Source of the DNA: an uncultured archaeon
Lineage (GTDB): Archaea > Asgardarchaeota > Lokiarchaeia > Sigyniarchaeales > SOKP01
Direction of reading: 5' to 3'
DNA length: 12,996 nt
NCBI GenBank assembly: GCA_964632315.1
Contig: CAZWEM010000076.1
Span: 1 to 12,996 of the forward strand
Positions 1-2,056 of the stretch are shown here, piece after piece. Positions within the stretch are counted from its first letter, which is position 1; the number at the start of each line of letters is the position of its first letter. Under the pieces are notes generated by a model. That model did no database searches and had not been told where the DNA came from. It was given only the letters and a program-made list of their open reading frames with translations. The position numbers were made by a program, and so were the translations under genes.

Positions 1-162
1 GGTTCTGTTGATGTTTCTGAAATTGAAGAGAAAATAATTAAGATAATAAAAGATAAACCTGGTTTATCTGATAAAGCATACATGGGATTAATTATGAAAG
101 AATTTAAAGGACAAGTTAATGGTAAAGAAGCAATGGAGATAATTAAAAAACATTTGAAATAA
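1..162 (+). CDS. gatE: C-terminal end (5'-partial) of Glu-tRNA(Gln) amidotransferase subunit E (GatB/YqeY-like tail)
   Basis: Not in the ORF track. Frame 1 is open from base 1: GSVDVSEIEEKIIKIIKDKPGLSDKAYMGLIMKEFKGQVNGKEAMEIIKKHLK*, TAA at 160-162. MGxxMKExKGxxxGK is the GatB/GatE/YqeY tail motif. An aspS start lies directly downstream. Confidence 0.75.
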   Translation, partial: GSVDVSEIEEKIIKIIKDKPGLSDKAYMGLIMKEFKGQVNGKEAMEIIKKHLK

Positions 163-163
163 T

Positions 164-176
164 AAACTTAATAAAT
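164..176 (+). promoter_or_regulatory. Candidate archaeal BRE/TATA element for the aspS fragment
   Basis: AAAC-TTAATAAA (TATA-like at 168-175), then a pyrimidine-rich spacer and ATG at 197. The spacing fits a leaderless archaeal transcript. Confidence 0.4.
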
Positions 177-196
177 ATCCTTTTTCTCTTTAAGTC

Positions 197-304
197 ATGT
201 TAAGAAGTCATAAAATTGGTGAGGTTACTGATAAATTAGCTGGTAAGAAAGTTGAGCTTTGTGGTTGGATAGATTCTATTAGATATTTTAAATCATCCTT
301 ATGA
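197..304 (+). pseudogene. aspS: N-terminal fragment of aspartyl-tRNA synthetase (anticodon-binding OB-fold start), truncated at about 283
   Basis: Not in the ORF track. Translates MLRSHKIGEVTDKLAGKKVELCGWIDSIR|YFKSSL*. The first 29 aa match the AspRS N-terminal pattern M-x-R-T/S-H-x-x-G-E...G-x-x-V-x-L-C-G-W-x-x-x-x-R. The expected (D/E)HG does not follow, and the sequence switches to the antisense of the MDR gene. Confidence 0.75.
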
Positions 305-1098
305 TTACTTCTCCACATCAACATACTAATTTTTTTTTCCCTTGAACGTATTAACGCTGAAAGTATAACTTTAATACGTCCTCCGCCAATAACAATTATT
401 CCTTCAGGGGTTAAAGCGCGTTTATATTCGCTAAGTGAGTGATGAGCTACAAAATCAAGAATTAAATCATATTGGGATCCTAATGCAGTGAAGTCTTCTT
501 GAGTGTAATCAATAGTATAATCCGCACCAATTGATTTTAACATTTCTATTTTTTCCGTACTGTCCACACCCGTAACTTCAGCACCAAAAAGTTTTGCGAT
601 TTGCACAGCAAACGAACCTATCCCACCCCCTGCTCCATTGATCAAGACTTTTTGCCCAGTTTGGATATCTCGTTTACCACGAAGACCCTGCAGTGCGATT
701 AGTGCTGCTGAATTTATTGTAGATGCTTCCTCAAAAGAAATAATTCTCGGTTTGATCATAAAAACTTCTTCAGGGCCACAAACATACTCTGCAAAACCAC
801 CAAAACCTTTCATGTATAAATCTCCAAAAACTTCATCCCCTGGTTTAAAGCGTGTAATATTGGAACCTACAGATACAACTCTTCCAGCTACATCAGTTCC
901 AAGTATTTTAAATCGAGGTTTTAAAAATCCAGTTGGACGAGCCATCCAATAACCTCTTAAATAATCTAAATCAGCACTATTTAAGGAGACGGCATAAACT
1001 TGGATCATAATTTGATTGTCTTTAGGAAAGGGCAGTTCAACTTCTTTTAATTCTAGAACCTCTGGAGATCCATACTTTTCATAAACAACTGCTTTCAT
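208..1098 (-). pseudogene. NAD(P)-dependent MDR-family oxidoreductase (Zn-independent, quinone-reductase-like), C-terminally truncated
   Basis: MKAVVYEKYGSPEVLELKEV start, GroES-like domain (LGTDVAGRV, FKPGDEVFG) and Rossmann motif VLINGAGGGIG. Homology to the neighbouring paralog stops at DDLKYLIE (about 274). The conserved end seen in the paralog ([38 protein letters not shown]) is replaced by antisense-aspS read-through. Confidence 0.85.
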
Positions 1099-1108
1099 AA
1101 GTATTCAT

Positions 1109-2056
1109 CTAAATGACTATTATTACCACATTCCCCTTTTTATGTCCCTTTTCAACATATCTATGCGCTTCAACAATTTCTTCAAGTGGATAACGTTTGT
1201 CTATAGCGGATCTTAATCTTCCTGCTTCAATTAAATCTTTAAGGAAGGTTAGATCTTCGACTTTTAACTTACTTGGGGAATCTTTTATAGTATTGAGATA
1301 AATTCCTGATTCTTTTAGTGAATTTTTACAATATGAAGAAGAAATTCGAGCGACAGCATCAAAAATAACATCATATTTAATTCCATTTAGGGTAAAGTCT
1401 TCTTGTGTATAATCAGTAACTTTATCAGCTCCCAGAAATTTAACCATTTCCAAATTGGTGGTACTACAAACTCCAGTAACTTCTGCCCCATAATATTTAG
1501 CAAGCTGTACTCCAAAAGTACCGACGCTTCCTGAAGCACCATAGATCAGGACCCTTTGTCCACTTTGGATATTTGCTTTTCTAAGAACTGTTAAGGCAGT
1601 AACTCCCCCTGATGCGAAACCACCAGCAGCTTCTTCAAAATTTAGGTTAGTTGGTTTTAAAGTTATTATACCATTCTCAGGCAAGCATTTGTACTCGGCA
1701 TAAGCTCCAAACTTGAATCCGGTTGATGCAAAAACTGCATCTCCCTTTTTAAACTGTTTTACATTTTCACCTAAAGCTTCAATTTCTCCTGCTAGTTCCA
1801 TACCTAACACGGGTCTCTTCGGCTTTTTAATACCAAGCATTAAATACAACATTACAGTTTGGAATTTGGAAGTTGGGTGCTTACCACTTCTAACTATAAC
1901 ATCCCCTATTGTTACAGAAGTTGCGTGTATTTTTATCAATACTTCATTTGCTTTAGGAGTGGGTTTTTCTACATCTTTAAGTTGAAGAACTTCTGGGGGT
2001 CCATATCTTGAATAAACAACGGCTTTCATTTTATCCATTTGTTTCACATTTATCAA
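1109..2056 (-). CDS. NAD(P)-dependent MDR-family oxidoreductase / alcohol dehydrogenase-like (Zn-independent); true start probably ATG 2038 or 2029
   Basis: [58 protein letters not shown] Rossmann motif and a complete GHKKGNVVI end. The structural Zn-Cys cluster is absent. Tandem paralog of 208..1098, separated by 10 bp. Confidence 0.93.

Follow-up and report, generated by a model that had tools for sequence, protein, structure and literature searches.

A terminal fragment of Pacearchaeota-like DNA on a Lokiarchaeia contig is almost certainly an assembly or library artefact

At one end of a contig binned with an uncultured Lokiarchaeia archaeon, the tail of gatE and the start of aspS on the plus strand run head-on into a dehydrogenase gene on the minus strand, and aspS and the dehydrogenase gene break off at the same place. 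Does such a junction record an exchange of DNA between two archaeal lineages, or was it made after the cells had been sampled? The window, i.e. the whole stretch of DNA analysed here, is the entire contig C76 of bin G000 (G000:C76:1-12996; 12,996 bp), and the junction lies less than 300 bp from the contig end. The first-pass annotation of this DNA had described two genes on opposite strands that are cut at the same spot, and this description was confirmed: the resemblance to an aspS start on one strand, and to an MDR protein on the other, ends at the junction. The features discussed below are as follows.

1..162, plus strand: foreign tip, part 1, the 3′ end of gatE (last 53 codons and stop), which runs off the contig end
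163..196, no strand: foreign tip, part 2, the 34-nt spacer between gatE and aspS
197..295, plus strand: foreign tip, part 3, the 5′ end (33 codons) of an aspS of bacterial type (MLRSH...GWIDSIRYFKS)
273..295, no strand: junction stretch of 23 nt, ATTCTATTAGATATTTTAAATCA, which fits both parents
208..272, minus strand: spurious end of the 296-aa ORF as called, SIQPQSSTFLPANLSVTSPIL and then a stop
273..1098, minus strand: native MDR gene for a 318-aa protein, of which codons 1-275 and one further base lie here
1109..2056, minus strand: intact tandem MDR paralog of 315 aa, the yardstick of the earlier reading

Frame +1 of positions 1-162 translates to a 53-residue C-terminal peptide ending at a stop codon. 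Against the Pfam family GatB_Yqey (PF02637) this peptide scored 24 bits (E = 4e-5), which falls short of the gathering cut-off of 27 bits, 53 aa being all that is left of the protein. Tails of GatE proteins of roughly 475-480 aa are 75-85% identical to it, and the best matches, where named, were from Pacearchaeota or Nanoarchaeota. The loci encoding these relatives, which were drawn from contigs representing one genome per species, came in 48 out of 48 cases from MAGs of Pacearchaeota, Woesearchaeota, Nanoarchaeota or other DPANN archaea, bearing out the earlier suggestion that the left side of the junction is Pacearchaeota- or Woesearchaeota-like. In many of these 48 loci an AspRS-like ORF begins within a few hundred bases after gatE. 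Judged by its tail domain, fragment 1-162 fits the short DPANN form of Glu-tRNA(Gln) amidotransferase subunit E.

The ATG at position 197 opens MLRSHKIGEVTDKLAGKKVELCGWIDSIRYFKSSL, which is terminated by a stop codon at 302-304. In Pfam this 35-aa head returned a weak hit to KH_5 only, which was considered meaningless; the 33-aa aspS fragment alone is too short for scoring against family models, and its membership was judged via a full-length relative. The peptide from position 197 onward does resemble AspRS: across 29 aa it has 76% identity with the N-termini of the AspRS proteins of two Pacearchaeota loci, L037 and L039. The former, from the Pacearchaeota MAG RS_10_33, is the closest genome to the tip that was found, and represents a different species from a different sample. 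Comparison by blastn showed L037 to be collinear with the window over positions 10-295 at 80.8% DNA identity, stopping exactly at 295. Its aspS starts, with MLRTHNLGEVDEKLAGSKVSLCGWIDSIRYFKSMVFLVLRD, 34 nt after gatE, the same spacing as in the tip, and the two spacers are alignable in sequence. The 465-aa AspRS of L037 scored 651 bits against NF001750 and 588 bits against TIGR00459 (aspS_bact), both above cut-off, and failed the archaeal model TIGR00458 (206 bits vs a cut-off of 368), whilst the 474-aa GatE passed the GatE models NF003107 and TIGR00134. With this N-terminal identity and with the L037 protein above the bacterial cut-offs, 197-295 is assigned to the bacterial-type AspRS, and the bacterial-style start proposed in the first-pass annotation holds.

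In L037 (L037:1732-4588) the gene for a shortened GatE of 474 aa immediately precedes that for an AspRS of bacterial type, likewise shortened, at 465 aa, and many of the 48 Pacearchaeota, Woesearchaeota and other DPANN loci (L013-L060) have these two genes side by side. The GatE and AspRS of L037 each match their own model in two stretches, and an internal domain is apparently missing from both.

On these resemblances, positions 1-272 are best read as a fragment of a Pacearchaeota-like archaeon and not as Loki chromosome at this position of C76. Exact scans for window 247-272 in the genome_contigs set, and for window 251-276 in metagenome contigs, returned no match to the tip; the actual foreign parent was found neither by these scans nor among the GatE tails, the best of which is 85% identical. 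No contig of the bin carries a partner end for the foreign part, and the tip is a dead end after 272 nt. The foreign genome was probably of low coverage and barely covered by the reads.

The minus-strand side of the junction was deposited as an ORF at 208-1098 that encodes 296 aa with ADH_N and ADH_zinc_N domains. No relative of this protein aligns past residue 277/278, the resemblance being lost after about residues 275-278, and its final 21 residues come from an accidental read-through of the foreign aspS head in antisense. Pfam scores for the MDR gene were 53 bits for PF08240, 67 bits for PF00107 and 42 bits for PF13602, all above cut-offs, which gives the domain arrangement ADH_N plus ADH_zinc_N / ADH_zinc_N_2. 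The neighbouring paralog at 1109-2056 is 46% identical to this gene, and when its tail was used as a tblastn query, an MDR fragment turned up on C102, a second contig of the bin, right where that contig begins. The missing 43 codons lie at C102:20-150, the whole tail falling within the first 150 nt, and C102 carries the MDR frame on as LKYLIE and then LFEAGKIKPIIDKFYNLSQVSEALKYLEDGHNKGKLVIQIKES and a stop. Joining the reverse complement of C76:273-1098 in silico to C102 from position 20 onward yielded a 318-aa protein, which aligned over its full length (1-315/318) with orthologs from the same genus at 50-61% identity. A GroES-like ADH_N domain, a Rossmann ADH_zinc_N domain and a joined length of 318 aa (about 320 aa is expected) place it within the MDR superfamily. 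By sequence, 273-1098 together with C102:20-150 encodes a putative quinone-oxidoreductase-like, zinc-type dehydrogenase, whose substrate and zinc dependence are predictions.

The same protein was present in independent assemblies. At 318/318 residues the joined product is identical to P0244, which is encoded on a 9,948-bp JGI contig, the comparison being one of proteins; a related-locus search with P0244 in metagenome contigs returned relatives of at most 64% identity only. The 90% cluster to which the MDR protein belongs has ten members, eight of which are 318 aa long and come from Logan, JGI and ENA assemblies, the other two being an 84-aa fragment and the 296-aa form from the NCBI record of C76, which is the only source of the chimeric form in the cluster. 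The seven 318-aa variants other than P0244 differ by 4-7 substitutions and have the same tail, and all eight 318-aa members carry LFEAGKIKP(I/V)IDKFYNL... at the point where the 296-aa form has its spurious tail. Moreover, on G008:C1 the gene after the MDR ortholog, in the same orientation, encodes a protein with 57% identity to the regulator of C102 (300 aa, with a double AsnC-type HTH), and this gene order supports the adjacency of C76 and C102. The native MDR gene is intact in nature, with its end on C102. This intact gene, restored by the C76-C102 join and identical to P0244, supports the first-pass view that an amplification, library or assembly chimera is the likeliest explanation of the junction.

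The MDR side has orthologs of 53-61% identity in genomes of the same genus. Named database relatives of the MDR protein belong to Promethearchaeota/Loki, and the expectation that the remainder of the contig is Loki-like held. When the two sides of the junction were compared separately, DPANN archaea were found on the left and Promethearchaeota/Loki on the right, which are not the same lineage. Genomes of the same genus contain up to 8 matches to the MDR protein each, often in tandem. At its other end C102 has 55 nt in common with the right end of C5, and a further MDR paralog lies about 1.8 kb into C5. The native locus, made up of window 273-2056 on the minus strand, C102:1-3865 (L061) and C5:143000-148319 (L062), is a run of MDR paralogs, two on C76 and one on C5, with the regulator that has the double AsnC-type HTH and also an ABC-2 transporter pair placed between them.

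What the two parents share at the junction can be delimited from both sides. Reverse-complemented, the first 19 nt of C102 (C102:1-19) match window 273-291 exactly, and from 272 leftwards the two sequences part, which sets the left limit at 273. On the right, L037 matches the window base for base between GATTC... and ...AAATCA (295), after which the sequences differ, starting with 296; its AspRS reads GWIDSIRYFKSMVF, with the residues GWIDSIRYFKS followed by MVF. The right limit of 295 is thus taken from a relative of about 81% DNA identity, L037, and not from the actual foreign parent. Between these limits the stretch encodes ..SIRYFKS of aspS on the plus strand and ..DLKYLIE of the MDR protein on the minus strand, and exactly this 23-mer, 273-295, is shared by the bin and L037. 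The first-pass annotation had ended the resemblance to AspRS after the arginine at 283 and had proposed a microhomology of 10-15 nt (274-283, possibly 269-283). Its extent needs correcting on both sides: the AspRS resemblance runs on through YFKS to 295, as judged from L037, the MDR side begins at 273 and cannot reach 269, and the shared stretch becomes 273-295, or 23 nt.

A match of this length is not exceptional. When the bin genome with the tip removed was compared with 268 kb of DPANN DNA in order to obtain a chance-level count, 23 exact matches of at least 21 nt were found (about 86 per Mb) and five of at least 23 nt (about 19 per Mb), one of the latter being the junction 23-mer in L037. 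The shared stretch is therefore at chance level for two AT-rich genomes and carries no biological signal. Two such genomes in one read set collide often at k = 21, so that a microhomology can arise without any biological signal, and a k-mer collision of this kind needs only that both organisms are present in one read set.

The contig ends of the bin point to the assembler that made them. The bin comprises 4.45 Mb on 119 contigs and is, by marker counts, 99.5% complete and 8.6% contaminated. Sixty of its contig ends overlap another contig by 54-55 nt, with 57 of the matches being exactly 55 nt, and its runs of N are either 10 or 100 long; we infer from the end overlaps and N-run lengths the signature of SPAdes or metaSPAdes with a final K of 55. 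Together with the completeness of 99.5%, these features make the bin look like a metaSPAdes assembly of a bulk metagenome and not like an amplified single cell. By default SPAdes uses the K series 21, 33 and 55 and passes the contigs of each round into the next. The smallest K of 21 used below is an assumption, taken from these defaults as implied by the 55-nt end overlaps.

The pair formed by C76 and C102 does not behave as the other contig ends of the bin do. In the end pairs C35/C41, C69/C53, C4/C72, C55/C50, C79/C25 and C61/C70, the overlapping end regions are 84-98% identical, which suggests that strain microdiversity or recent paralogs may be a main cause of fragmentation of the bin; the 4-7 substitutions seen between samples in the MDR protein cluster can be set beside this microdiversity. 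C76 and C102 overlap by 19 nt and are then 30% identical, i.e. random. End pairs that overlap and then diverge otherwise remain 84-98% identical, with the sole exception of C47, and an ordinary strain-variant overlap between C76 and C102 was rejected on this difference. The right end of C47, which lies outside the window, diverges from the end of C41 into a long poly-G run over its last ~56 nt. Such runs are typical of no-signal reads in two-colour Illumina sequencing, and this one is proof that the assembly of G000 has kept artefactual sequence at the tips of contigs. We also considered the 19-nt overlap as the k-1 of an assembler run at k = 20, which was rejected since SPAdes is indicated both by the 55-nt overlaps and by the lengths of the N runs.

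Taken together, the marks of a chimeric contig are present at this tip. The two sides have different origins (DPANN for 48 of the 48 loci on the left; same-genus orthologs and Promethearchaeota/Loki names on the right), the native continuation is contiguous in independent data (C102, P0244, the seven 318-aa variants and the synteny in G008), and the exact stretch shared by both sides, at 23 nt, is no shorter than the smallest k, assumed to be 21. The tip of C76 is almost certainly an assembly or library artefact.

Within that conclusion, the junction was probably made in silico, as a misjoin in the K = 21 assembly graph. The reads at the dead end of C76 and those of its true neighbour would have overlapped by no more than 19 nt, which is below K = 21, and would not have been joined. 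A foreign fragment sharing 23 nt with the same dead end, at or above K = 21, would have been joined to it in the first de Bruijn graph, the foreign scrap becoming attached to the Loki contig because of the chance identity at 273-295. The resulting K = 21 contig would then have been carried as a pseudo-read into later rounds, keeping the false link up to K = 55, and the tip would stop after 272 nt as the foreign organism was barely covered. The survival of a K = 21 misjoin to K = 55 is deduced from general knowledge of how SPAdes reuses contigs. Two points count against such a misjoin: it requires a local gap in Loki coverage, yet the JGI assembly crossed the same spot without trouble, and the right limit of the shared stretch comes from L037, which is ~81% identical.

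A chimera formed in vitro is a less likely source, and the main rival of the misjoin. Here the junction would be a wet-lab artefact of library preparation or amplification, arising by template switching or by annealing of incomplete products at the 23-nt match. The 272 nt beyond the junction correspond roughly to one read pair or fragment, the head-on orientation with microhomology is in keeping with such an origin, and the poly-G tip of C47 illustrates that reads of artefactual origin extend to the ends of contigs in G000. However, a rare chimeric molecule alone would not block the join between C76 and C102, and at normal coverage the branch should show a 55-nt overlap like the other 60 ends, not one of 19 nt. 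The shared length of 23 nt is just above the smallest usual k of 21, as a graph join needs and a chimera formed in vitro does not. Moreover, the bin, a 99.5% complete assembly of metagenome style, shows no sign of whole-genome amplification. A chimera from multiple displacement amplification (MDA) of a single cell, which had been entertained as a hint of physical association, likewise has no support in the features of the bin.

A real rearrangement in a subpopulation is very unlikely. It would require that a Loki cell line took up Pacearchaeota DNA by illegitimate recombination at the 23-nt match, disrupting one MDR paralog, and that in the assembly the variant branch ended up in C76 and the wild type in C102. 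A mixture of variant and wild type would also break the contig at the junction, the MDR gene has many paralogs (up to 8 matches in a single genome of the genus) so that its loss could be tolerated, and DPANN archaea live attached to other archaea, which makes a transfer of DNA conceivable. If the junction were physically real in a minority of cells, with the DPANN donor presumably living on or near the Loki-type host, it would be a direct trace of DNA transfer from DPANN to Asgard archaea, but this we regard as improbable in the extreme. The bin itself also contains the wild-type MDR gene, as do eight other assemblies, none of which has the chimeric form; the foreign part comes to its dead end after 272 nt with no partner contig; two truncated housekeeping genes are what it contains, with no mobile-element or integration features; the length of the match is at chance level; and a true branch at K = 55 should leave an overlap of 55 nt, not 19 nt. 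This 19-nt overlap is less well explained by a library chimera or a minority rearrangement than by a K = 21 misjoin. The further readings offered in the first-pass annotation, integration of DPANN DNA or an MDA chimera hinting at association, gain no support from a bin that is metaSPAdes-like, and the junction gives no evidence of gene fusion, of integration or of physical association between DPANN and Asgard archaea.

Lastly, the bin was searched for intact copies of the genes cut at the junction, as had been advised. Family searches located a complete gatE of its own on C51, with an open frame of 649 aa, and a complete aspS of archaeal type on C15. The termini of the C51 and C15 genes are unlike the tip, and a copy of the bin's own gatE or aspS was rejected as its source because those termini are unrelated. 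There is also a pair on C6 (C6:109698-113969), in which an AspRS/AsnRS-like (asnS-like) gene that does not reach the aspS cut-offs precedes a gatB-like gene of the same orientation by about 1.7 kb. The rest of a tip-type gatE or aspS was on no other contig of the bin in family searches, which returned only C51, C15 and the C6 pair; tblastn of the two tip peptides against the bin found nothing else, and blastn of the 48 DPANN gatE-aspS loci matched only C76:8-295, besides weak conserved matches to the C6 gene. That the tip is native, i.e. part of a second, horizontally acquired gatE-aspS pair elsewhere in the chromosome that was misjoined by intragenomic misassembly or inversion, is hardly credible, since, although the 8.6% marker 'contamination' could reflect duplicated markers and both sides are AT-rich (27% GC in 1-283 vs 33% genome-wide), the remainder of such a pair is on none of the other contigs by any of these searches.

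With an artefactual join as the preferred reading, the tip of C76 matters as quality control and not as biology. A public genome record carries 272 nt of DNA from another phylum, and the 296-aa chimeric protein, with NCBI as its source, is already in a public protein collection, where it is clustered with eight correct versions of 318 aa. Chimeras at contig ends can seed false claims of horizontal transfer or symbiosis, especially for Asgard and DPANN genomes, for which claims of this kind are readily noticed. The present case offers a test that needs no reads: to search the beginnings of the bin's other contigs for the missing end of the truncated gene, and to ask whether the stretch shared at the junction is just above the smallest k of the assembler.

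The junction can be compared with three kinds of known system. As in chimeras from MDA or PCR recombination, it is head-on (inverted), with a short identity at the crossover. MDA chimeras mostly join nearby segments of one molecule; unlike them, C76 has sides from different phyla and an identity length just above the smallest k of the assembler. Scars of microhomology-mediated recombination or horizontal gene transfer resemble it in having a short identity between foreign and resident DNA at the junction and in truncating both genes, but here the bin itself and all other assemblies contain the undisrupted MDR allele, the foreign DNA is a dead end of 272 nt, and the chimeric allele does not occur independently. 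Interspecies chimeric contigs occurred in 20.5% of near-complete metaSPAdes MAGs in CAMI benchmarks, and the outermost ≤1 kb of a contig is left aside by the tools that detect and correct them (preprint 10.64898/2026.10.15.759294). Like these contigs, C76 joins two unrelated genomes at a short shared sequence and goes unseen by marker-based quality scores. Unlike the usual case, its foreign part is only 272 nt long and sits at the extreme end, within the ≤1 kb that the tools exclude, and what it yields is not a block of foreign genes but a deposited protein with a false C-terminus.
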